A stretch of DNA of 24,650 bases. Source: a virus. The stretch is taken from UHGV virus genome UHGV-0200293, one strand, 5' to 3'. The translations under genes and the position numbers were made by a program. Position 1 is the first letter of the stretch. Each line of letters starts with the position of its first letter. Shown one piece after another: positions 2,943 through 18,785 of the stretch. The notes under the pieces are model-generated. The model was given only the letters and a program-made list of their open reading frames with translations, had not been told where the DNA came from and searched no databases.

Positions 2943-3750
2943 ACACTATCGTCCCAGTACCATTTTTCCATACTGATCCGGTCCATGTTATAGCGTAACC
3001 TAAAGTTGTATCTAATATCTGCGCACCTGCGTCAACAAGACCAAGGGCGGGCCTTCCTGCGGTAGTAAAACTTGGCAGGCGCGGAGGCTTTACAAAGTTA
3101 ACAGAGTTAGCTGTTCCAAAACATGTAATACTAGCTGTAGTTAACTGTACTGTATATGTATTAGACCAAGCCCAGCGAGTTGTTCCATCATAATATCCAT
3201 TTGCAATTTTGTTATCAAATGTAGCTGGAGTAACTTCAACACCAGTAACAGCGATTGAATCAGCCACTTCGAACACCACGGTGTCAGCGTCGTAAACTTT
3301 CCACTCACCAGAGAAAGTGGAAATGTCGTTGGTCCCGAAGTCTCCAGACCATGACGTGGTATTCATGTAGCCCTGAATGTAGGTGCCAGCGTTCTCACCA
3401 GCGAAGTCGAAGCGTACCCAAAGGTTAGGCTGCCGACCTGCCTGCACTTCATCAAAGATGTACTTCGACAGACGCCACGCGCCGATCTCGTTATCTTTAT
3501 CCGACTTGCGAAACTCACCTTCACCGGAGATCGTCAGATCCATGTTGTTGACCAGGTTCTCCACCAGCCCTTTAGCATCATCTGCTTCGGAGTTGATGGT
3601 GTTCATCGAATAGTCGATGCCCTTGGTCGTCATAGCGCCGAGACGCTTCCACTCGGAAAGCGCTGGCACTGCGTCGGGGCAGCCAAAGGCCATGCGTAGC
3701 ACAGTTACTTTCCCGATCAGCTTGCCAAAATCATTAGCACAGCCTTGCAT
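2941..3750 (-). CDS. Phage major tail (tube)-like protein with C-terminal extension; last gene of the late operon
   Basis: 269 aa; N-terminal region (LGAMTTKGIDYSMNT...DLTISGEGEF) resembles TP901-1-type tail tube proteins from memory; RBS GAGAGG 5 nt before ATG. Confidence 0.4.
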   Translation of the reverse strand: MQGCANDFGKLIGKVTVLRMAFGCPDAVPALSEWKRLGAMTTKGIDYSMNTINSEADDAKGLVENLVNNMDLTISGEGEFRKSDKDNEIGAWRLSKYIFDEVQAGRQPNLWVRFDFAGENAGTYIQGYMNTTSWSGDFGTNDISTFSGEWKVYDADTVVFEVADSIAVTGVEVTPATFDNKIANGYYDGTTRWAWSNTYTVQLTTASITCFGTANSVNFVKPPRLPSFTTAGRPALGLVDAGAQILDTTLGYAITWTGSVWKNGTGTIV

Positions 3751-7310: not shown

Positions 7311-8507
7311 TTACTCCGGCATTTCGCTGACTGATTGGGTATTGGTAGCCTGGTTGCGGAATGCACCGTTCAGGCCGAAAGATGTCTGGCACTTGGCGTA
7401 CATGGCGTCGAGCGCCTTACCGTCCAGATCTGCAACTTCGTCGTCGCTCATGTTTATTGCCAGCTTTACAGCGGCGCGCTTTTCGCCTTTCTCTTTGTCA
7501 GAGTTGGCATTGATCTGGCTATTAATTGCGGAGACCTGCTCAGTAAGGACCTTCGCCCACGCTGGCATCTCTTCGCTGTTGGTGGTCTGCTCTTTAGCCT
7601 TCTTGTCTTCCGCTTCTTTCTTCTCACGGGCGGCCTTCTCTTCAGGCGTTTCTTCTTTGCTGCCGGCGTTTTCTGCCAGCATTTGGTTGTATGCGTCCAT
7701 CAGTTCGGCATCGGTTTTACCGTCAACCGATTTACCTTTGGCCTTCAGCGCATTAACGATGAGCTCTTTCATCGGGTCTGTTTCCTTCTGGGTTGAATCG
7801 CTGTTGGCGCCGAATAACGCCTTTAGCTGGTTGAAAAATGATTTGAATGCGGGGTCTTGCTGGTCTGGGGAATTGGACTCTTCGAGATTGACGACCTCGA
7901 TTTCGACTTCATCACCCTCAGCATTTACGAAGATGCCCACGCCCTCCTCCGGCGTTCCGGCGCCAGGCTCATCAAGCAGCACCGCCACATGGTCGAACAT
8001 CATGTTGGTGGCGATCTCGTTGTACTTCTTGCCCTTCGATTCGCCGTTGGCGGCTATGCCGGAATACAGCAGGCCGGTAGAAATGTGAATCGGGTCGGAG
8101 TTGGTGCCGGCCAGCATCTCATCCAAACGGTTAATCAGGCGCTTGCTCTTGTCGCTGGACTCGGCGTACTGGCGGTTAACGTACATGTCGCCCATCACCT
8201 TCCCGTCCTTGTGGCTGACGTTCTGAAGCCATGCCCCGACGTGGTACTCATTCACTGCCCGGACATCACGTGCCGACACATGCTTGCCGTCCACTTTCGG
8301 GTGGCCCAGCGGCATCGGGTTACGCTCGAGCGTGTTGTAGGCCTTTTCGATTTCTGCTGCCGGGTACAACTTCCGGTTCATCACGATATCGTCCACGACA
8401 GGCGTGATGCCGCGAACCACGATATGTGGCTTGCCGTCGATGGTTTCAGTGGTGATGTTTGAAGCGGAGTTGACGACGGTCAGCACGTTAACGCGGTTGC
8501 GTTTCAT
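7311..8507 (-). CDS. Capsid scaffolding/maturation protein (DUF2213-like N-terminus, charged coiled-coil C-terminus)
   Basis: 398 aa; C-terminal KEEK/AEDKKAKE low-complexity stretch; lies between MuF-like and capsid genes. Confidence 0.5.
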   Translation of the reverse strand: MKRNRVNVLTVVNSASNITTETIDGKPHIVVRGITPVVDDIVMNRKLYPAAEIEKAYNTLERNPMPLGHPKVDGKHVSARDVRAVNEYHVGAWLQNVSHKDGKVMGDMYVNRQYAESSDKSKRLINRLDEMLAGTNSDPIHISTGLLYSGIAANGESKGKKYNEIATNMMFDHVAVLLDEPGAGTPEEGVGIFVNAEGDEVEIEVVNLEESNSPDQQDPAFKSFFNQLKALFGANSDSTQKETDPMKELIVNALKAKGKSVDGKTDAELMDAYNQMLAENAGSKEETPEEKAAREKKEAEDKKAKEQTTNSEEMPAWAKVLTEQVSAINSQINANSDKEKGEKRAAVKLAINMSDDEVADLDGKALDAMYAKCQTSFGLNGAFRNQATNTQSVSEMPE

Positions 8508-8539
8508 GCTGGGGTCCTCATTGGTAGATTTCAGGCAAT

Positions 8540-8562
8540 AAAAAAGGCCGCCGAAGCGACCC
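8540..8562 (-). terminator. Intrinsic terminator (minus strand) ending the head-module insert
   Basis: Minus-strand RNA GGGUCGC-UUCG-GCGGCC followed by UUUUUUAUUGCC; near-identical to the 4398-4419 terminator. Confidence 0.5.
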
Positions 8563-8586
8563 TATATGCATTTGGTTTTAATTAGC

Positions 8587-8775
8587 TTAAGCAAAGGAAA
8601 TAGGCATTTCCATAAAGCTATCTAATGTTTCTGCCTTTCCATTTAAAGCAGACGGGGAAGGAACTTGAGCCAAAGATGCTGCAAAGAAGCTGGACTCCTC
8701 TAGGGCCTGCATAGCATTTTTGCGCAGCTCAGGGCTCATAGAGTCAAGTATTTCTTGAACAGTTCTCATTTTCAC
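8587..8775 (-). CDS. Hypothetical small protein (62 aa), accessory insert
   Basis: RBS GGAGGTGA before ATG; AT-rich; second gene of a two-gene cassette. Confidence 0.45.
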   Translation of the reverse strand: MKMRTVQEILDSMSPELRKNAMQALEESSFFAASLAQVPSPSALNGKAETLDSFMEMPISFA

Positions 8776-8838
8776 CTCCAGTTAACAACATATGTAGTCT
8801 ACTACCTTCAATCTCAACGTTCCACAACATATTAATGA

Positions 8839-9408
8839 TTAATCATCATCAGCCTCAAAATCATGTTGCCCGCGCGATTCTTTTAAACGGCGTAACGTTT
8901 CATCGATGTTTTGAAGCGTAGACTCCATCAAGTCTGATTTTACAAAGTCGAATGAGAGGTGCTTGTAGTAAGGAACAGCGTATGGTAAAGGATTAACCAC
9001 GCGTATCACAGATGCTTTCGCTGTCCTGGCAAAAACAAGAGCAACGTTAAGAGCTACAAAACCCATACGTTTAACAAGATGATCATCATGGACTTGTCGC
9101 TTAAAGTGCTCAATCATATGGATGTTGACCAACTGATTTTCCATATCATAAGAGAACACTGCGGCACCGATGGTGATCGGTGGTCTACCCTTTGAGGATA
9201 CCGACAAGGTAAACTTGTTGGTAAGATTTTCGTGTTCATTTTGGAACCAACCGCTCCAATCCAGCACTTTTCCACGAAGGCTTTCAATCTGTAGCGCGTC
9301 AGCTTCACTTAAAAAATTGAGAGATAATTTTATTTCTAAAGCATCAAGTTCTTGCTGAGTTGAAACTAGCGCAAGTTCATTAACAACTTCGATTTCTTGC
9401 CGGTTCAT
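8839..9408 (-). CDS. Hypothetical protein (189 aa), accessory insert
   Basis: AT-rich ORF inserted between MuF-like and scaffold genes; acidic C-terminus; no family recognised. Confidence 0.5.
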   Translation of the reverse strand: MNRQEIEVVNELALVSTQQELDALEIKLSLNFLSEADALQIESLRGKVLDWSGWFQNEHENLTNKFTLSVSSKGRPPITIGAAVFSYDMENQLVNIHMIEHFKRQVHDDHLVKRMGFVALNVALVFARTAKASVIRVVNPLPYAVPYYKHLSFDFVKSDLMESTLQNIDETLRRLKESRGQHDFEADDD

Positions 9409-9469
9409 ATGAGTTCATTTTTAAGTTTTTTCTTATGATACCTAATCATACTACCAAAAGTTATTACAA

Positions 9470-10468
9470 TTAAGTCCCTTGCCATGATATTCGTTCTTTC
9501 GCCAACTTTTCCTTCAGCCCTTCATTGAAGATGCTGCCGTCGTCATTGAGTAGCACCGGAATCTGGCTGCAGTAACAGTTGTACCGGTTGCCGTTCTCGG
9601 CGTAGAAGTTGCGCACCTCTTCGGTCGTGTAGACCTTTCCGTGTCGGCTGGCATGCCAGGTGCGCGTCGTTGGCTTGAGCGCTGACAGCCACAGAAGGCC
9701 GGTGTTCAGCCCAAGCCTGTCGGCCGCCCAGTCCGTTTCATTCCACTGCGCCTGCCGCAGCGCGCCGACCTGTTCAGTCTGAGCGATGGTCTTCGCCTTC
9801 GACATCGACACATCGAGGCGCTTGCTGATGACACTGGCAGTCTCACGCGGATTCACTCCCCGCGCCACTGCATCAGTGATTATGTTGGTCAGATCGCCGC
9901 GGGCTGTATCGCTGATGACCTTCCAGTCACTGAACGTTGTCAGCCTGGCCGCCGCTATCTGGTTTAGATATCCGGGGCTGTTTAAAAGCTGCTGTAACGT
10001 CGTCTGGCTGGCGTACACCTGCGACTGCTGCGAGAAGTTGTTGAAGGCCTCCAGCGTACCGCGCCGCGCCTCTGCGGCGACGTAATCCATCGCCCAGAGG
10101 TTTTGCTCGCCGCCATCCAGCAGGTAATCGTCGAGAATGGCCTGCACCGCTTCGAGGAGATCCGCCAGTTCCTGCGCCGACATGTCGTAGATGAACTTGC
10201 CTGCGTTGACCTGGTAGAGCCGCATATCCTCGCCGTTGTCGTGGCACAGGAAATGCCAGTTATGGCTATTAACTTCTCGCTCTATCCCTTTCAGGCGTAG
10301 GTCGAACAGCGCTTTCAGTGCGCGCTTGATGCCGAGATACCGGTCCTCGATATCCCGGTACATCGCTGTTACCTGCTTTGCCGATCGGGTCGGGTCAACC
10401 TTGCTGCGCGGAACTACCGGTGTCCCTACTTTCGTCTTTTGCTCCGGTGTCATCGGAAAGAGGATCAT
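9470..10468 (-). CDS. Phage head morphogenesis protein (Mu F / SPP1 gp7-like); start uncertain
   Basis: 332 aa directly downstream of portal; N-terminal 74 nt overlap portal, so a downstream start is possible. Confidence 0.55.
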   Translation of the reverse strand: MILFPMTPEQKTKVGTPVVPRSKVDPTRSAKQVTAMYRDIEDRYLGIKRALKALFDLRLKGIEREVNSHNWHFLCHDNGEDMRLYQVNAGKFIYDMSAQELADLLEAVQAILDDYLLDGGEQNLWAMDYVAAEARRGTLEAFNNFSQQSQVYASQTTLQQLLNSPGYLNQIAAARLTTFSDWKVISDTARGDLTNIITDAVARGVNPRETASVISKRLDVSMSKAKTIAQTEQVGALRQAQWNETDWAADRLGLNTGLLWLSALKPTTRTWHASRHGKVYTTEEVRNFYAENGNRYNCYCSQIPVLLNDDGSIFNEGLKEKLAKERISWQGT

Positions 10469-11870
10469 CGGTCGTTACCTTTTTATTTGGGTCAGGCGGC
10501 TTAACATCTTCACGCGGCTCAAGTTCTCCTGCTTCCCTGACCTCATTTTCGTCAACAGCCGGTGTGCCATAGGCCTGTTGAGTATCCTTCGCGACTGCCG
10601 CCATTTCCTTCATGGTGGCGATCTTTTCTTTCTCACTTGGCGCGAGTAGATCAGACCAGGTTAACGTGATTTCGCCAGACTTCGGAGGTTCGATAACTTC
10701 CACAGTCCACAGGCGTTCTATAACTGCACTTGCCCGGTCAGTCTGAAACCCGTTGCGGCGACCATTACAGCGCTTGGCAAAGTCATTTTTGTCCTGATCT
10801 GACGCAAGCCTTCCTGTCTGCTGACCAAACAAGATGGTGAAAGGCATCTGAACTGAAGATGAGAACTGGTTAGCTGATACTGTCCATGTTGGGCCAGGAT
10901 CGGCGGCGGCGACAGAGAGTACTTTCGCCTCCCCATCCTGGGTAACCAGAGCGGAATCTGTACCTGAGTTAAGCTTTTGAATAGCAGCATTCAGCGCCTC
11001 AGCTAAGCCTGAATATCCAGTTCTCTTCGCCTCGTCGACGATGGTCTTGAGATTTGTCTCCTTCGACATGTTAATGCCGAGCTGTCTACTGGCGTTCTTC
11101 AGAACCCCTTCCGCACTACCGCCGGACGTTTTCGCCATATCGAGCAGGTCGTTGTAACCAGCTCGCAGGAATGGAATGCCAGCCAGCGACGTTTCATCTT
11201 CTGATCCCTCACAGAACATGATGATGCGTTCTGGGTGAATCTTAATCGACCGCATTGGCCCAGTGATGTTTCCGTTATCGCCGACCTGTTGCTCCTGGAA
11301 ATAGTAAAACTTCGGCATGCCGTAGTCTGGCGACTTTTGGTCCTGCTCAAGCTCACCGGGTTTAACCTGCGCTTCCCATGCAGGAATCATCTTGACCAGG
11401 CCGCGCTCACGAGTGTTTCGCATTACACTGCGGTCGACGGGCTCCCACCATTCCTTGCTGTCTGCAAACTGAAGGGTAAGTGCTGAGTAATGCCCAACCA
11501 GATTTCGCCGATCCGCATCCTTCACTTTCGCCCAATGTTTCTTCATGAGCTTGGTGACTTTCTTTTCCCACGGCGTCGACTTCTTAGACTTCTTCGTCTC
11601 ATCGCCGTCGACGATCACCGGGGTATCGGTCCAGCATGCATCGAGCAATTTATGCACCGCGCCGAACGCCGAGCCGTTACGTTCATACATGTTGTAGAAG
11701 TGGTAAAAGTCGAGTCGCTCCGGGTAACCAAATTCGCACCAGAGATGATATCGTTTCGTGTTACCTGACTTCCCAAGCCCTGATGCATACAACTGGCGTG
11801 CGCGGCCAACCTCGTTAAGGCTGTTCACAATGAGCCCAGCGAGGACTTGCATTTCTGTAGTGTTACTCAC
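10395..11870 (-). CDS. Portal protein
   Basis: 491 aa, acidic C-terminal tail, immediately downstream of terminase large subunit. Confidence 0.6.
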   Translation of the reverse strand: MSNTTEMQVLAGLIVNSLNEVGRARQLYASGLGKSGNTKRYHLWCEFGYPERLDFYHFYNMYERNGSAFGAVHKLLDACWTDTPVIVDGDETKKSKKSTPWEKKVTKLMKKHWAKVKDADRRNLVGHYSALTLQFADSKEWWEPVDRSVMRNTRERGLVKMIPAWEAQVKPGELEQDQKSPDYGMPKFYYFQEQQVGDNGNITGPMRSIKIHPERIIMFCEGSEDETSLAGIPFLRAGYNDLLDMAKTSGGSAEGVLKNASRQLGINMSKETNLKTIVDEAKRTGYSGLAEALNAAIQKLNSGTDSALVTQDGEAKVLSVAAADPGPTWTVSANQFSSSVQMPFTILFGQQTGRLASDQDKNDFAKRCNGRRNGFQTDRASAVIERLWTVEVIEPPKSGEITLTWSDLLAPSEKEKIATMKEMAAVAKDTQQAYGTPAVDENEVREAGELEPREDVKPPDPNKKVTTDDPLSDDTGAKDESRDTGSSAQQG

Positions 11871-11880
11871 TGAGTTGTCC

Positions 11881-13356
11881 TTATGTGAAGAAGATTGCGC
11901 CGACCTGCTTGTGGTTGTTCTTCGCTACCGCAAAGTAGCGGAAGCCGTCAGCACCGTGTGATGTGAAGTCATGAAGCGGTTTATCTTTCCAGCATCCGCG
12001 CTTGTCGTCCCACTCCTTGCGGTAGCCTTCGAGGTGAGATATGCCCTCGGCACACTTCTCCTCATCGGATACACATGATGGGAGGATTTCACGCACCGAC
12101 TCAATGCCGGTATCAACTCCCACTTTCGGAACCACCTGAAACGTCATGCTGTAAACCTGCCCGTCGATTTCATACCCCTCGCGGGCAAGCTCTCTACGGG
12201 ATTTGGCGTCAGCACCGAATTCACGGTTATCGATGTCGTGCGGGCCCCAGTGCTCGTCGTACTCGTAGCCACGGTCTTTCAGCACCTTCATGTAGTGCCT
12301 CAGGCCCTCGCCAGAGTTTTCGTAGTAGTCGATGATGTGAAACTCTTCGCCAACCTCACGAACGAACCAGATAGCCGTAGAATCGCCCACGCCGATATCC
12401 CAGAACGTATGGACCGGAAGGTGCGAGTTGTCCGGGATTTGGCCGATTCGCTTGTTGGTGTAGAGCCAGCGGAATTGTTTGGCGTAGTACGCGCCCTCGA
12501 CAGACTGCTGGAAAGCCTCCGCCGGTATGTTCGGGTATTCGCGCTTCATGTCGTCGCCGAGAGTTTTCTCTTTGGCGTAGTACCATGCTTTCTGGCGCTC
12601 GTTGACGACTACACCATGCTTCGCCTCCATTTCAGCGAAGTACTCAACCAGGCGCACCGGCAGCGATTCAACCGGGTCGATTGCGTACTGCGGGTTCTTC
12701 CACCAGGAGAAGAAGAAAAACTTCCAGTCGAGCGCGGATAATGGCTTGCCTTGCAGCAACGCTTTCTCTGCCGTCTGGCAGTAATCGAAAAAGTACCCCG
12801 CCCGGCCCTCGGCTGTGCTCTCGATAGTAGCGAAGCATCCAGTCGATACCGCTTCAAACGCACCAGTGACGATTTCACGGGCTTTGTCAGGATACTTGGC
12901 GCATATCTTCCCGAACTCGGAAACGTGCAGGTAGCGCAGCGTACCGCCACGAAACGACGTGCTGACGTAGAGTGAGCCGCCCTTCTTAAAGACGAGCTCA
13001 CCGGAAGAGTCGTTGCTAGCCGGGTTGGCCGCCTTTATCTCTGCCGGCAACTTGTCATAGGCATACTTCACCTTTTCCCGAAAGAGGCGCTTTGCATCAT
13101 TCAGTGTGTGGGCGATCAGCGCGCACTTTGCAGACTCGAACAGCGCCGCGTCCAACTGGATGATGCACACCTCAGTTGTGAAACCGAGCTGGCGAGCTTT
13201 CAGGATGATATTACGTATATGGATCCCCTCAAAGTATTTCCGTTGCTCAGGCGTCATCCTGAACCGCGTCGGCTTTCCCTCTTTGTCGGTTATCCAGTAA
13301 AGATTGTTCAGCCGCCAGTCTTTGTCGGCCAGCAGCTTGAGGTGCTCAGGTTTCAT
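11881..13356 (-). CDS. Terminase large subunit
   Basis: 491 aa; start overlaps the small-subunit stop; followed by portal. Confidence 0.7.
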   Translation of the reverse strand: MKPEHLKLLADKDWRLNNLYWITDKEGKPTRFRMTPEQRKYFEGIHIRNIILKARQLGFTTEVCIIQLDAALFESAKCALIAHTLNDAKRLFREKVKYAYDKLPAEIKAANPASNDSSGELVFKKGGSLYVSTSFRGGTLRYLHVSEFGKICAKYPDKAREIVTGAFEAVSTGCFATIESTAEGRAGYFFDYCQTAEKALLQGKPLSALDWKFFFFSWWKNPQYAIDPVESLPVRLVEYFAEMEAKHGVVVNERQKAWYYAKEKTLGDDMKREYPNIPAEAFQQSVEGAYYAKQFRWLYTNKRIGQIPDNSHLPVHTFWDIGVGDSTAIWFVREVGEEFHIIDYYENSGEGLRHYMKVLKDRGYEYDEHWGPHDIDNREFGADAKSRRELAREGYEIDGQVYSMTFQVVPKVGVDTGIESVREILPSCVSDEEKCAEGISHLEGYRKEWDDKRGCWKDKPLHDFTSHGADGFRYFAVAKNNHKQVGAIFFT

Positions 13357-13958: not shown

Positions 13959-14042
13959 GCCTTTTTCCTATTAAAATATTTCCATTGATGACCTATATTA
14001 AGAAGGAAGTAACCTGTCATCTATGCTACCAGGAGATTCTCG

Positions 14043-14231
14043 ATGGGTGAAAAAATTACTGAAGATGCTATTAAGCAAGCATATAGCGTTACCGTCATGC
14101 AACTTTTTAATGTCTATCTAAATTCGGCAAGCGATCCCAACGCATCAGCAAGATTTCAGGAAGGCCTTCGACTTGCTATACAAGTACGAGATGCCTGCAT
14201 GCAAATAGCCTCCCAAAACCATGCTCCATGA
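14043..14231 (+). CDS. Hypothetical small protein (62 aa), antisense to the late operon
   Basis: RBS AGGAGA 6 nt before ATG; located between terS and Rz. Confidence 0.4.
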   Translation: MGEKITEDAIKQAYSVTVMQLFNVYLNSASDPNASARFQEGLRLAIQVRDACMQIASQNHAP

Positions 14232-14570: not shown

Positions 14571-14804
14571 ATGTCAGAAATAAACATAGAAAAGTTCAAA
14601 TTGGCGTTGGCAAATTTCAGCAGTGAACTATCAAATGCAGGGATTCCTTCAGAGGGCCTGAAAATTAGCATTGATTCTCCAGCACTAAGCCAGCCATTAC
14701 ATGAAGAAATAAGCGCAATGACTCCGATGAGGTTTCAATGTCATTGGGGACCTGGAATTGGCTTTACCTGCACATTTGGCACAGAAACCATGCCTGACAA
14801 ATAG
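14571..14804 (+). CDS. Hypothetical small protein (77 aa), antisense to the late operon
   Basis: RBS AGGAAGG 6 nt before ATG; palindrome TTTATAGC-N-GCTATAAA about 50 bp upstream. Confidence 0.4.
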   Translation: MSEINIEKFKLALANFSSELSNAGIPSEGLKISIDSPALSQPLHEEISAMTPMRFQCHWGPGIGFTCTFGTETMPDK

Positions 14805-14811
14805 CCATTGT

Positions 14812-15273
14812 TTATTGACATTGATTTTTAATGTAATTCTGCAAACCAGCAATTAGGATTTTGTTGGTTGCGATTCGTTCTCTGAGATTGAAATAATCCC
14901 GTTGAGCGGCGTCAGTAAGTCTGGCGCTGGCTGCATCATCCACGCCGGGGGCGGAGGTGGCTTTACGCACGCTGTCACAGGCTGCGGCGACGCGCAGCCG
15001 TTTAGCGCCAGAATCGACATCCCTACGCAAATCGCTAATGGTGTTTTGCGCATCGAATAACTCCTGTGTGTACTTCGCATCCAGCGCGGCAACATCGCGC
15101 TGCCGGGTTGTCATGTCGGTGATGGTGGCATTAGCCAGATTCAGCGCCTGAGTCTTCTCATCGCGCTGCTTCTTGTATTCTGTGGCGTTGTCGCGGTAGT
15201 GATTAACAGCCCAGCCAAGAGATACGATGATGCAGATGACCACAGCGATGATGGTTGCGGTTAACCTGCTCAT
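14812..15273 (-). CDS. Rz-like i-spanin
   Basis: N-terminal TM helix, coiled-coil periplasmic part; start overlaps endolysin stop. Confidence 0.7.
14853..15053 (-). CDS. Rz1-like o-spanin lipoprotein embedded in Rz
   Basis: Internal start [20 protein letters not shown] (lipobox) and Pro-rich body in the +1 frame of Rz. Confidence 0.6.
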
Positions 15274-15758
15274 TTCTCACCCCACAGGCAAACTTCGCGC
15301 TCAATCTCGCGGCGGGTCATCAGCCCTTTCCACTGCTTTCCGCCAGCGTAAGTCCAGCACCTTAACTGCTCGCATGCACCTTTGATATCGCCCTGGTTGA
15401 TTTTGTACAGGAGCGTTGAGGTCTTGAAGTTTCCAGCGCCAACGTTGTACGCGAAAGAGTAAATCGCTGCTCGTTGAGTTTCAGTAGTCGGCACTTTGAT
15501 GTGCGGATCAACCTGTGCGGCAGTTCGCGTTAAATCTTTCCTGGTTAGTGCGTCGCATTCTTTATCGGAGTATCGCTTTCCGGGAATGATGTCTGAACCT
15601 GTGTGTCCATCGCATACTGTAATTACACCAACGACGTCACGGTATGCGACATACTCCCTTCCCTCAACGCCATCCTTACCTGACAGCATGACTGTTGCGA
15701 TCGCAATCGCACCGCCACCGATGGAGGCAGCAATTTTATTTCGCAGGGTGCTGTTCAT
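15270..15758 (-). CDS. SAR endolysin (T4-lysozyme-type, phage 21 R-like)
   Basis: N-terminal signal-arrest-release segment [17 protein letters not shown] and C-terminal [21 protein letters not shown], close to phage 21 R as I recall it. Confidence 0.8.
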
Positions 15759-15871
15759 CAGATTTCCTTCGGTGCTTTCTGTCTGAGATCGGCGAGAACT
15801 TCGGCTGTAGCAGATGGGTTGCTTGAATCAGTCTTGTTCAGAATGTCCTGCAGTATCTTCGTGCGCTTCAT

Positions 15872-16030
15872 TTACTCACGCTTATTGAGCCTGTATGTCA
15901 GGACGCCGAGGATGATGCTGAACGCGACGCCAATGATGAAGCCCCAGTCCTGCAATGACAGGCTGGCAAAGAAAGCCGCAAGGCCAGCGCTGCCGTATGT
16001 CGCGTTGCTGTATCTTTCGTCCATCTTCAT
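15872..16030 (-). CDS. Pinholin-like class II holin (phage 21 S-like), 52 aa
   Basis: Met-Lys-Met dual start, two TM segments with Gly-rich first helix; not in ORF track (under 60 aa); RBS GAGGAG. Confidence 0.6.
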   Translation of the reverse strand: MKMDERYSNATYGSAGLAAFFASLSLQDWGFIIGVAFSIILGVLTYRLNKRE

Positions 16031-16212
16031 AGTCTCTCTCCTCGCGGTAAATGCGGGAGCTGTGTGTTGTAGGGTCAGGCCCTCGGGCTGGATTTAACAA
16101 CAAAGCGTATCGAGAATGATTCCCGAAACCTGAAATAGAAAAAAAGATTTTTTAATAGAGATTTAAGTTTTCTAGAAAATTGCCGATTTAAAAATCTTTC
16201 ACAGGAGGAAAC

Positions 16213-16473
16213 ATGCATCACATCTATCGCGTACAAGATACACAAGTGGCCAACTTTAGGCTTGAAGCACATAAGCACCACCCAGCACTTTCAATTCATC
16301 TTATCAGTACTGGAACCAGCATTAATGCAGGCAAATTCTTTAACTCTAATATTGAGGTTTTTGTTGCGATTTCTGACACCCAAACACTTGGCGCTTTGAA
16401 CTCAGATTTAATGCTAAACGCAGCAACAAAAAATAGCTTCACCCCGCTAGGAAGCGCAGAGTTTTATATTTGA
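16213..16473 (+). CDS. Hypothetical protein (86 aa), antisense gene between Q and holin
   Basis: RBS AGGAGG 4 nt before ATG; AT-rich; stop followed by a hairpin terminator. Confidence 0.45.
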   Translation: MHHIYRVQDTQVANFRLEAHKHHPALSIHLISTGTSINAGKFFNSNIEVFVAISDTQTLGALNSDLMLNAATKNSFTPLGSAEFYI

Positions 16474-16484
16474 GAAACAACAAT

Positions 16485-16515
16485 AAAAAAGCCCAAGGTG
16501 TTAACCTCGGGCTTT
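16485..16515. terminator. Hairpin terminator; candidate late terminator tR-prime on minus strand
   Basis: A6-GCCCAAGGTGTTAACCTCGGGC-TTT; minus-strand reading ends in UUUUUUAUUG, about 50 nt downstream of the candidate late promoter. Confidence 0.5.
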
Positions 16516-16567
16516 AATTCTTTGTGTCGACAATTAAAGCTATAACGACGATATCAGACTTACATAA

Positions 16568-16596
16568 AATATATGCGTTTCAGTTCGGTTTTGCAA
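16568..16596 (-). promoter_or_regulatory. Candidate sigma-70 late promoter (pR-prime analogue) at the 3' end of the Q-like gene
   Basis: Minus strand TTGCAA-17 nt-TATATT; position matches lambda pR-prime just after Q. Confidence 0.35.
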
Positions 16597-17263
16597 GACT
16601 TACATTCGAATTTGTCGCCTTTTGTTGTAAACGTGATCGCGTTACGGAGATAAGCGCATCATTATCGAGCCGCTTAAAGACATTACGCAGTGCCAACCAG
16701 TGAGGCAGGTACGTCTCTGTCCAGGTGGATTTAGCTACGCCCACCAGCTCAGCCAGCTTCTGGTACTCGTACGTCTCGCGGCCGCACAGCTCTGCTTTGA
16801 CGTCCTGCGCCGCCAACCAGATTAACGCCCGGAGTCGCTCCAGCGTTTTTCCGGCGATTTTCTTGCCAGCGAGTTGCGCCGTAAACTTATTCCATGCCCA
16901 GCGGGTTATGTCGACCTGATATTCAAACCGAGTATTTTCACTGTAGCTCCAGAGCAACTAGGCTTTTTGATGCTCGTCGAGCGACATTAGCGCCCGACGC
17001 CATGAAGCAGTGGAGTATTCAACCGGCTGCACCAGCGGGATATGCGATCCTTTGGCGTGTGATTGTTTTCCGGGGATCGGAGGGTTGTTCAGCGTTATCA
17101 GTTTTCCCGTAACTTCATCGCGTACACGCAACCTCTTGCGGGGGTAAGTATTCGTATCGAACTGCGCGTTCTCCAGCCAGGCCATTAACTGACCCTTTGT
17201 CGCTCCGCTCAGATCTGCCGTGGCCGCAATCAGTTGCTGGCGAATATAGGATAAATTTTTCAC
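16580..17263 (-). pseudogene. Late-gene regulator (Q-antiterminator-like by position) interrupted by an in-frame amber codon
   Basis: ORF-track ORFs 16958..17263 and 16580..16957 are contiguous and in frame, separated only by TAG (16958-16960); the distal 125 codons contain no ATG; GTG start with SD GGGGA. Confidence 0.5.
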
Positions 17264-17400
17264 TGATTTTCCCCTGCTTTCTGCTGAATACGGATGTAAT
17301 TGCGAAGGATGCGGTATGCCACCGGAAAAGATCCCCGGTAGCGATAAATGCGGAGACGCAGCCAGCGCAGACGGAGTATCTCGATCACTTCTGGTTTCAT
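17260..17400 (-). CDS. Small ORF (46 aa) translationally coupled to ninG
   Basis: ATG overlaps NinG stop (ATGA); its stop overlaps the Q-like GTG start. Confidence 0.3.
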   Translation of the reverse strand: MKPEVIEILRLRWLRLRIYRYRGSFPVAYRILRNYIRIQQKAGENQ

Positions 17401-17977
17401 GCAGCCTCCTGACGCTTCAACTCTTTGAGTTTTGCCCGGTACTCATCACGAATTCGGATGTAGTCTTCACGTTTCCATTTGGGTAATTCGTGCGGCCCCA
17501 TAAGGGCATCAAAGCGGGCCTGGCTGATTTTGGTGATCAGCGCCGGTCGATAGGCAATTAGGTTTCCTGACAGATGGTTATTGCAGGGGGCGCACTGGCG
17601 ATGACAGTTGTCTTCATTAAACCGCAACTCAGGGTTTGCGCCGGTCGTGCGGAAGTGACCGGCGTGATACTGCCCTTCATGGTGACGCCCACAACTGATG
17701 CATGGCAGATGCCTGTCACGGTAGCGGATGAACTCGTTAAAGGCCTGCTGGGCCTGCTTAATGAAGTAGCTGAGTGGTTTCACTGCCTGACAACGCTCAG
17801 CCAGACGCTTACGTTCGGCCTTCTCCCCCCCAAGTCGGCGCTTTTTATCTTTCCGTTGCTTCTCGGCTTTGGCTGCGTCATTCACGACTAGACGTACTGC
17901 TCATGACGGACCGGGTTAAACCACTCACGGCATACTGTGCATTTTCGGCGAGGGCGCTTTTTCTGATTATTAGCCAT
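17397..17977 (-). pseudogene. NinG/Rap-like recombination protein, frameshifted near the N-terminus
   Basis: Good RBS and ATG at 17975-17977 open a 29-codon frame (RRKCTVCREWFNP...) ending at TAG 17888-17890; the remaining 162 codons (KQAQQAFNEF...LPCISCG...) continue in a different frame from GTG 17885. Confidence 0.5.
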
Positions 17978-17979
17978 AA

Positions 17980-18186
17980 TCACCCCCATCCTTTTTGTCG
18001 GAAGGTTCTCGGCGTCCGCGCCGGACGTTCGCATTCTTGTAATTTCGCGCTGACTGTCCAGGTCAGGAAATCAGGATTGAGGCTCTTTTGGGCTCTGACG
18101 CCGCGAGACTGATAATCGGCAATCAGGCGCTCTGCCTGCTCGGTGGTGCATTCCGTGTGATGAAAATATGAATACTTCATCGCCAT
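17980..18186 (-). CDS. Small nin-region protein (68 aa)
   Basis: ATG overlaps upstream stop (TGATG); ORF-track ORF extends upstream into the neighbouring gene. Confidence 0.4.
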   Translation of the reverse strand: MAMKYSYFHHTECTTEQAERLIADYQSRGVRAQKSLNPDFLTWTVSAKLQECERPARTPRTFRQKGWG

Positions 18187-18785
18187 CACCCCGCAAAGCT
18201 CATAAGCTGGGCGGCGGCATTTTCGGCCTCTTCCCTGCTGTTGAAAGTGCGGGACAAGATCCAGCGCCACAGGACATCGAGTGCGGCCTTATAGAGGTGC
18301 TGGAATTCGGTTTCGTCCATACTGGCGAACGCGATGCTGCGAGGGTGTTTGCGGAGCGTGCCATCTGGTAACTGGATGGCGTCAAAGTGACCGGCCTCAA
18401 CAGTTACCCAGGCCCGGTATGCATCAAAGGATTTACACAGGCTGATTCCGTTCGTGATACGGCGACTGGCGATCTGCTCCAGATACTGCTCGGCAGCATC
18501 CAGCAGAGCGCTTTCATTGCCGCCGTATGAGGCAAGGAATCTGGCATAACCGTTAACGAGTTTGCGTTCATTCGAAGAAATAGCGCCGCCGGTTGGTTCC
18601 CAGTATTCGAACCCGAGATTCAGGAGCGCAAAGAAACGGCGATGAAATGCCGGATTGCGGACAAGCTTAAAGTCGGCAACCAGAACGGAGCCGAGCTTGC
18701 ATTTTGATTGCAGAAAATCACTGGTCTCCGGCGTAGCGGGGATCAGTATTCCGGTCGACTGCTTAATAAGATGTAATTGCGCCAT
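18186..18785 (-). CDS. Phage nin-region protein (DUF1367-like)
   Basis: 199 aa; family assignment from memory; position upstream of NinG. Confidence 0.4.
   Translation of the reverse strand: MAQLHLIKQSTGILIPATPETSDFLQSKCKLGSVLVADFKLVRNPAFHRRFFALLNLGFEYWEPTGGAISSNERKLVNGYARFLASYGGNESALLDAAEQYLEQIASRRITNGISLCKSFDAYRAWVTVEAGHFDAIQLPDGTLRKHPRSIAFASMDETEFQHLYKAALDVLWRWILSRTFNSREEAENAAAQLMSFAG

Follow-up and report, generated by a model that had tools for sequence, protein, structure and literature searches.

Prophage cargo genes are usually seen as either constitutively expressed or placed under virulence regulators, and ordinary morons, stx and bor among them, also typically keep a constant position within the phage genome. 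The bor gene of phage lambda is a lysogen-expressed moron that lies 3' of Rz and encodes a lipoprotein from a σ70 promoter; in phage PA-2, the lc porin gene is cargo at the junction between the antiterminator gene Q and the holin gene (the Q-S slot), much like nmpC of the E. coli K-12 prophage DLP12, for which no FliA dependence is known to us. The Rfam IsrJ family, for its part, is described as a virulence-linked small RNA of Salmonella. IsrJ itself, encoded in the late region of Salmonella Gifsy-1, measures 74 nt and has both a start site of its own and a Rho-independent terminator (PMC2330248; PMC4825925). The stx cargo of Shiga-toxin phages occupies the Q-S slot in the sense orientation, as an earlier preliminary description of the locus presented here had also held, and is expressed via Q read-through upon induction (PMC8065619). 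Two further systems connect temperate phages with host motility: flxA of the E. coli K-12 prophage Qin, which has a validated FliA promoter (TAAAGATT-N11-GCCGATAG) and an expression of 280 vs. 2 in a fliA deletion (PMC4183435), and TldR and the phage flagellin, where phage cargo interfaces with the host flagellar system and which belong to an active field of recent work on flagellar remodeling by phages (PMC13418256).

Here we analyze a gene for an 86-aa protein in a 24,650-nt stretch of the viral genome UHGV-0200293, which we refer to as the window. From 14.8 to 18.8 kb the minus strand of the window carries the late-control and lysis genes of a lambdoid prophage (Table 1), and the 86-aa gene is placed on the plus strand, antisense to the late operon, between an intrinsic hairpin that starts 15 nt 3' of its stop codon and the start of the minus-strand holin gene. 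The preliminary description had noted exactly such an AT-rich open reading frame, preceded by an AGGAGG ribosome-binding site and lying between a candidate late terminator and the holin start, and this account holds: the gene has a G+C content of 41% vs. about 49-52% in the flanking phage DNA, the difference recurs in the six loci compared (36-41% in the gene vs. 45-53% in the flanks), and a Shine-Dalgarno sequence is found in all homologous loci. The strong translation named in that description would be a prediction from the Shine-Dalgarno sequence. Two further small plus-strand reading frames, at 14043-14231 (62 aa) and 14571-14804 (77 aa), are likewise antisense to the late operon and lie just 3' of Rz, in a bor-like position; neither matches a Pfam family, and both are gene calls in related assemblies.

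Table 1. Features of the window, with the σ28-type promoter boxes of homologous loci
Feature	Position	Strand	Remarks
Rz	14812-15273	-	
Rz1	14853-15095	-	
Lysozyme	15270-15758	-	hydrophobic N-terminal segment
Holin (phrog_1350), pseudogene	15758-16030	-	CAA to TAA at 15872-15874
Conserved late-leader segment 5' of holin	16031-16142	-	left cassette boundary; up to 91% identity to Salmonella phage UPF_BP1
Cargo cassette (moron)	16143-16485	+	promoter, Shine-Dalgarno and ORF; AT-rich; flanks common to phages without the cassette
Predicted σ28 -35 box	16163-16170	+	TTAAGTTT (consensus TAAAGTTT); identical to E. coli ycgR box
Predicted σ28 -10 box	16182-16189	+	GCCGATTT (consensus GCCGATAA); after exact 11-nt spacer
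Shine-Dalgarno	16203-16208	+	AGGAGG, 4 nt 5' of ATG; read from sequence
86-aa protein gene	16213-16473	+	ATG ORF, 86 codons; stop included
Late-strand intrinsic terminator (tR'-type)	16488-16515	-	3' end of IsrJ-like RNA; terminator scan and folding of both strands
IsrJ-family leader RNA (RF01393)	16488-16564	-	Rfam 55.5 bits vs. gathering score 37; model 1-75/75; pR' to terminator
σ70 late promoter (pR'-type)	16568-16596	-	TTGCAA-17-TATATT; promoter scan; overlaps Q 3' end
Phage-82-type antiterminator Q (PF06323), pseudogene	16580-17263	-	conserved TGG to in-frame TAG at 16958-16960
YlcG	17260-17400	-	
NinG	17397-17885	-	
NinB-like	18186-18785	-	
L005 promoter			-35 TAAAGTTT; -10 GTCGATTA
L007 promoter			-35 TAAAGCTT; -10 GTCGATAA
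L010 promoter			-35 TAAATTTA; -10 GCCGATAA
L013 promoter			-35 TAAACATT; -10 GCCGATAT
L015 promoter			-35 TAAAGGAT; -10 GCCGTTAA
L016 promoter			-35 TAAACTTT; -10 GCCGATAT
L017 promoter			-35 TTAAGTTA; -10 GCCGATAG
L022 promoter			-35 TAAACATT; -10 GCCGATAC
L023 promoter			-35 TTAAGTTT; -10 GCCGATTG

The 86-aa reading frame is a real gene under purifying selection and not a chance ORF. Between the window gene and its 83%-identical homolog in L005 the 60 nucleotide differences are distributed over the three codon positions as 8, 9, and 43, with a dN/dS of 0.03, and five other within-family pairs give dN/dS values of 0.11-0.26. That the ORF is a nonfunctional leftover in a decaying prophage might be suspected from the Q and holin pseudogenes of the window, from the deletions in other copies and from the extreme rarity of the family, but this reading is already contradicted by the selection analysis (dN/dS 0.03-0.26), and with a conserved length, a confident fold and a promoter and Shine-Dalgarno sequence kept across genera we regard it as hardly credible.

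The preliminary description had pointed to two comparisons, a homology and structure search of the protein and an inspection of related prophages at the Q-S junction. A word-indexed search of 5.8 billion proteins, together with phmmer run exhaustively on 1.84 billion representatives, yields a family of approximately 11 clusters, whose named members come only from Citrobacter, Pantoea ananatis and Erwinia rhapontici prophages and whose length of 85-93 aa is maintained down to 32% identity. The phmmer search returned six small relatives together with two long repetitive proteins, P0009 and P0010, which we discounted as low-complexity or repeat artifacts, and the ten-member alignment is too divergent for a locus scan. 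No family match was found for the 86-aa protein in Pfam, PHROGs, NCBIfam, PADLOC or the PDB sequence profile, nor a homolog by tblastn of 50,697 phage genomes or among the GTDB species representatives, nor a DNA match to the gene in 5,426 E. coli genomes, and the IMG/VR matches are copies of P0012 and P0008 only. Membership in the FlxA family (PF14282) was considered and rejected, with no Pfam match, an hhalign probability of 0.05% and no BLASTP alignment. The protein family is new, and literature searches turned up no account of cargo of this kind.

AlphaFold2 modeling from an eight-sequence alignment gives a confident prediction (pLDDT 92, pTM 0.83) with the element order β-α-β-β-α-β and a long, variable β2-β3 loop, and neither a signal peptide nor a transmembrane segment is predicted. 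Structure matches of the model are to generic folds only, and it can therefore be read just to the level of a small soluble α/β domain with a ferredoxin/PII-like fold, possibly a PII-like one; the likeness to small proteins of this kind (GlnK, PstA, SbtB, CutA, DUF3240) is likewise at the level of the generic predicted fold.

Genomic contexts were recovered for every member (the window with L001-4, L005/6, L007-9, L010-12, L013/14, L015, L016, L017, L022 and L023). In 11 of 11 contexts the ORF runs opposite to the late operon, abutting a Q-type antiterminator gene, a holin gene or both: both adjoin it in eight contexts, Q only in L007 and L022, and the holin only in L016. The Q neighbors represent at least three families (PF06323 or 82-type, PF03589 or lambda-type, and PF06530, with others lacking an assigned family) and the holins five (PF16080/PF04971, PF16083, PF05106, PF16931, or without assignment), so that neither the Q nor the holin neighbors are homologous between contexts; in L010, L015 and L007 several hundred bases of other DNA separate the gene from Q. 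Furthermore, BLAST against phages finds the window segments 16031-16142 and 16486-16579 to be common to Klebsiella, Enterobacter and Salmonella phages, where the slot between them holds tRNAs or other DNA, and since the flanks are common and the middle is replaced, the cassette boundaries can be placed at approximately 16143-16485. The Q-S slot is well known for cargo, and the gene found in it here is a classical moron; the antisense cargo of the preliminary description is thus genuine. The left flanking segment of about 110 bp is common to many lambdoid and P22-like phages with differing holins, including Gifsy-2 and phages of Klebsiella, Enterobacter, E. coli and Salmonella, and probably has a function within the late leader. 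In Klebsiella phage ST11-VIM1phi8.1 (L020), an annotated hypothetical plus-strand gene of 109 aa (1842-2171) sits in the Q-S slot by a tRNA-Asn, again in antisense, and antisense cargo therefore recurs there in this phage group.

The most informative feature of the locus, absent from the preliminary description, is a conserved, predicted promoter of the σ28 type. The consensus for σ28 (FliA, flagellar class 3) promoters is TAAAGTTT-N11-GCCGATAA. Alignment of the upstream regions of the family, anchored on the ATG, reveals a conserved TGCCGAT motif that fits the σ28 -10 element, and in every locus a matching -35 box is found exactly 11 nt 5' of the -10 box, with two to three mismatches to the consensus in the family loci (Table 1). 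The window copy reads TTAAGTTT-tctagaaaatt-GCCGATTT (16163-16189) with three mismatches, and from the usual FliA promoter distance the transcription start is predicted near 16196-16198. Scanning the 24.6-kb window for the consensus with up to three mismatches returns one match vs. 0.18 expected. A position weight matrix derived from the 25 E. coli FliA ChIP-seq sites of high occupancy (PMC4183435, Table 2) assigns the site 5' of the ORF 12.9-21.8 bits in all ten distinct loci, ranking it best in seven and second best in three, and in all ten the site lies on the coding strand, 21-31 nt 5' of the ATG. With leave-one-out scores of 8.7-27.2 bits for 24 of the 25 E. coli sites (aer 13.9, ycgR 15.3, fliC 10.1), the 13.7 bits of the window site are comparable to aer and ycgR and among the lower scores of bound E. 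coli sites, and only about four other positions in the 191 kb scanned score at least as high. The conservation lies chiefly in the two boxes, with 1.38 and 1.51 bits per column vs. 0.42 for the spacer and 0.60-0.74 for the flanks, and persists although synonymous sites between the same family loci are saturated. As judged from these sequence comparisons, the family very probably belongs to the class 3 flagellar regulon of its motile hosts and is transcribed by σ28 RNA polymerase; given the type of promoter, the gene is predicted to be expressed in motile lysogens, at the same time as the class 3 genes of the host for flagella and chemotaxis.

Several other σ28-like or promoter-like signals were noted. 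The TGCCGAT motif was considered as an extended -10 element for σ70 and rejected, its TG being misplaced and the hexamers lacking a consistent T6, and a window site at 13972 (13.8 bits) was set aside as probably spurious, as it has no CGA core. The C. portucalensis loci L007-L009 contain a further σ28-like site (15.4 bits) on the minus strand at 3548, 26 nt 5' of an 82-aa ORF (3246-3494). In the Pantoea ananatis prophage L010, a second plus-strand σ28-like site of 18.3 bits in the Q-S slot (3277-3525) directly precedes another small plus-strand ORF (3307/3331-3525), whose hydrophobic stretches suggest a small membrane protein and which has no Pfam match; judging from this second site, the Q-S slot may hold more than one FliA-driven cargo gene.

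The promoter evidence has to be weighed against the possibility that the gene is an ordinary lysogenic-conversion moron controlled by σ70 or by another regulator, with the conserved TAAAGTTT/GCCGATAA-like boxes representing another factor's site or a chance occurrence. AT-rich upstream DNA of the kind seen here can house weak σ70 promoters, and one could be present; the -10 box of the window clade, GCCGATTT, is off consensus and the weakest of the family. It is also important to note that E. coli FliA sites with GCCGATTA show low occupancy and that many FliA-bound sites in E. coli have no detectable regulation (PMC4183435). In addition, a perfect 12-bp palindrome, TTTTCTAGAAAA (16168-16179), covers the end of the -35 box and part of the spacer in the window copy and could be either an operator or a chance feature. 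However, the palindrome is not conserved, being nearly kept in L023 (TTTTCTAAAAAA) and in no other member; no σ70-like plus-strand promoter passed the promoter scan; ten of ten loci preserve the boxes, their exact 11-nt spacing and their distance from the ATG in randomized surroundings; and the matrix, trained on E. coli ChIP-seq sites alone, ranks the site first or second everywhere. Control by σ70 or another regulator is on balance unlikely, and we retain σ28 as the preferred reading.

The hairpin 3' of the gene had been proposed both as a late terminator and as one that could act on either strand, and these two claims fare differently. The terminator scan calls the hairpin on the minus strand only, where a 12-bp stem is followed by TTTATTGTTG; on this late strand the stem is perfect because G-U pairs are used, and a T-run follows, whereas the plus strand has A-C mismatches in place of these pairs and an interrupted T-run (TTTAATTCTTT). 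The hairpin is clearly a better terminator on the late strand, and in view of this asymmetry its use by both strands is only weakly supported. The pattern is the same in most homologous loci, with an A-run, a stem and a short T-run directly after the stop codon. It is at this tR' hairpin of the phage that the cassette ends. On the minus strand, the σ70 promoter, which overlaps Q at its 3' end, is positioned as expected for the start of the IsrJ model, and the IsrJ match corresponds to the pR'-to-tR' leader directly after the 82-type Q, here as well as in Klebsiella and Enterobacter phages. As the IsrJ RNA ends in the hairpin and the promoter-hairpin unit also occurs 3' of 82-type Q genes in phages without the ORF, the hairpin can be assigned as a late-strand, tR'-type terminator, in line with the earlier proposal. 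These matches further suggest that IsrJ-type RNAs are late-leader transcripts.

This arrangement raises the question of whether plus-strand transcription itself, rather than the protein, is what matters, with transcription toward pR' and Q that passes the weak plus-strand hairpin damping leaky late-gene expression or pairing with the IsrJ-like RNA and thereby coupling lysis control to the state of the host. The hairpin is indeed poor as a plus-strand terminator, the two convergent RNAs would have complementary 3' ends, and the place beside tR' is conserved in most loci. Against such a role, the protein is under strong purifying selection and is confidently predicted to form a folded domain, the gene lies several hundred bases from Q in L010, L015 and L007, and it is kept where Q is dead or truncated; we consider a function in transcription alone very unlikely.

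Codon comparison with intact relatives locates the in-frame stop codons of Q and the holin (Table 1), two independent single-base nonsense mutations that inactivate late activation and lysis. The window Q is 69% identical at the DNA level to phage 82 Q and its Pfam match falls into two halves (1-100 and 102-218 of 220), and the counterpart of the holin in Salmonella phage UPF_BP1 is 90 aa long. The element adjoins phoPQ and is found in many Citrobacter assemblies, some of them with large late-region deletions (L002 and L004), and the 86-aa protein is identical in all of them. In the C. portucalensis loci L007-L009 (P0008), the lysis cassette is gone, and the ORF, promoter and hairpin are kept between a portal fragment and a truncated Q; this prophage remnant is integrated directly beside fliE/fliFGH (7583-12258). 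The prophage by phoPQ is cryptic, with the gene apparently kept as a host-regulated cargo remnant, although retention in such remnants could simply reflect recent decay. These findings also bear on the earlier expectation that transcription of the cargo would collide with late transcription upon induction: with Q (TAG) and holin (TAA) both pseudogenes, the collision cannot come from this prophage's own Q, but it is plausible with Q-modified late transcription in intact relatives such as L023.

In light of the results presented here, we propose that the gene is an antisense moron driven by FliA and insulated by tR', whose product is a small soluble protein acting in motile lysogens, a reading we consider probable if far from assured. 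Under this proposal, an accessory moron of lambdoid prophages would encode a small cytoplasmic protein from its own σ28-type promoter and would be transcribed alongside the host class 3 flagellar and chemotaxis genes in motile lysogens, provided that the promoter depends on FliA in vivo. In the lysogen, tR' would stop pR' transcripts short of the gene and shield it from convergent transcription, by analogy with lambda and Salmonella IsrJ; in the lytic growth of an intact phage, Q-modified polymerase would pass tR', and the resulting antisense transcription would presumably switch the gene off. In the window prophage this off-switch would be dead, given the Q and holin pseudogenes, and the gene would persist as a host-regulated remnant.

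As for the role of the protein, our guess is that it binds a motility or chemotaxis component or a small ligand, or that it protects flagellated cells from flagellum-dependent phages. A more elaborate version, which we offer only tentatively and hold to be doubtful, would make it a FliA-timed effector acting on the motor, on chemotaxis or on a nucleotide signal, or else a shield against flagellum-dependent phages, whose fixed antisense place behind tR' would turn Q antitermination into an automatic off-switch upon lytic growth ("motile lysogen on, lytic off"), in a module shared by unrelated Q and holin modules. Protection could alternatively be of a known kind, the gene being a single-gene antiphage or superinfection-exclusion factor of an established defense type: prophage morons are often defense genes, and flagella-linked expression would suit protection against flagellum-dependent phages. 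PADLOC, however, matched none of its families in the eight members scanned (E up to 1), enzymatic or membrane features are absent and the fold matches are generic, which makes a defense factor of known type rather unlikely. The family is very small and strain-specific, so that any benefit to the host is putative.

Returning to the proposal of a FliA-driven moron, a small protein family here appears to be wired to the host flagellar sigma factor while fixed in antisense behind the late terminator, and next to flxA it would give a second and independent example of prophage genes in the flagellar regulon. The locus offers a compact, testable system with a single promoter, a single 86-aa protein and a single terminator, of possible use for understanding how prophages read the motility state of their host and how antitermination silences lysogenic cargo upon induction. 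In addition, an unannotated family gains a structural model, and the IsrJ-type RNA is placed as a late-leader unit beside 82-type Q genes.

Among the known systems, nmpC of DLP12 has the same arrangement, as it too is Q-holin cargo antisense to the late operon (quuD on the plus, nmpC on the minus and essD on the plus strand). The preliminary description had set the antisense orientation of the present gene against the sense orientation of other cargo; the orientation itself stands, but with nmpC arranged alike it is not unusual in itself. The product of nmpC is an outer-membrane porin of about 365 aa with an unrelated sequence, in contrast to the 86-aa cytoplasmic protein and predicted σ28 promoter found here. 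Like the present gene, flxA is a prophage gene with a FliA-type promoter that is antisense to the surrounding phage operon, but it lies in the early-right region and encodes a PF14282 protein, whereas the present gene is found at the Q-S junction. The borD gene of DLP12 is likewise a moron antisense to the late operon, located after rzpD. In Shiga-toxin phages stx occupies the same slot, 3' of pR' and tR', and differs from the present gene in its opposite orientation and opposite predicted regulation. The likeness to IsrJ of Gifsy-1 concerns the neighboring minus-strand leader (16488-16564), with its own σ70 promoter and intrinsic terminator, and not the ORF; it is also important to note that Gifsy-1 isrJ is located after anrP (PMC4825925), whereas here the IsrJ-like unit directly follows Q. 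TldR and the phage flagellin are alike in general concept only, their proteins and mechanism being unrelated to the 86-aa family, and when the literature was searched for prophage cargo under FliA control at the Q-S junction, nothing beyond the flxA and TldR work came up. Antisense cargo in the Q-S slot (nmpC) and a FliA-driven prophage gene (flxA) are thus already known; what is new is the protein family, its strictly conserved σ28-type promoter and its invariant antisense placement behind tR' across unrelated Q/holin modules.
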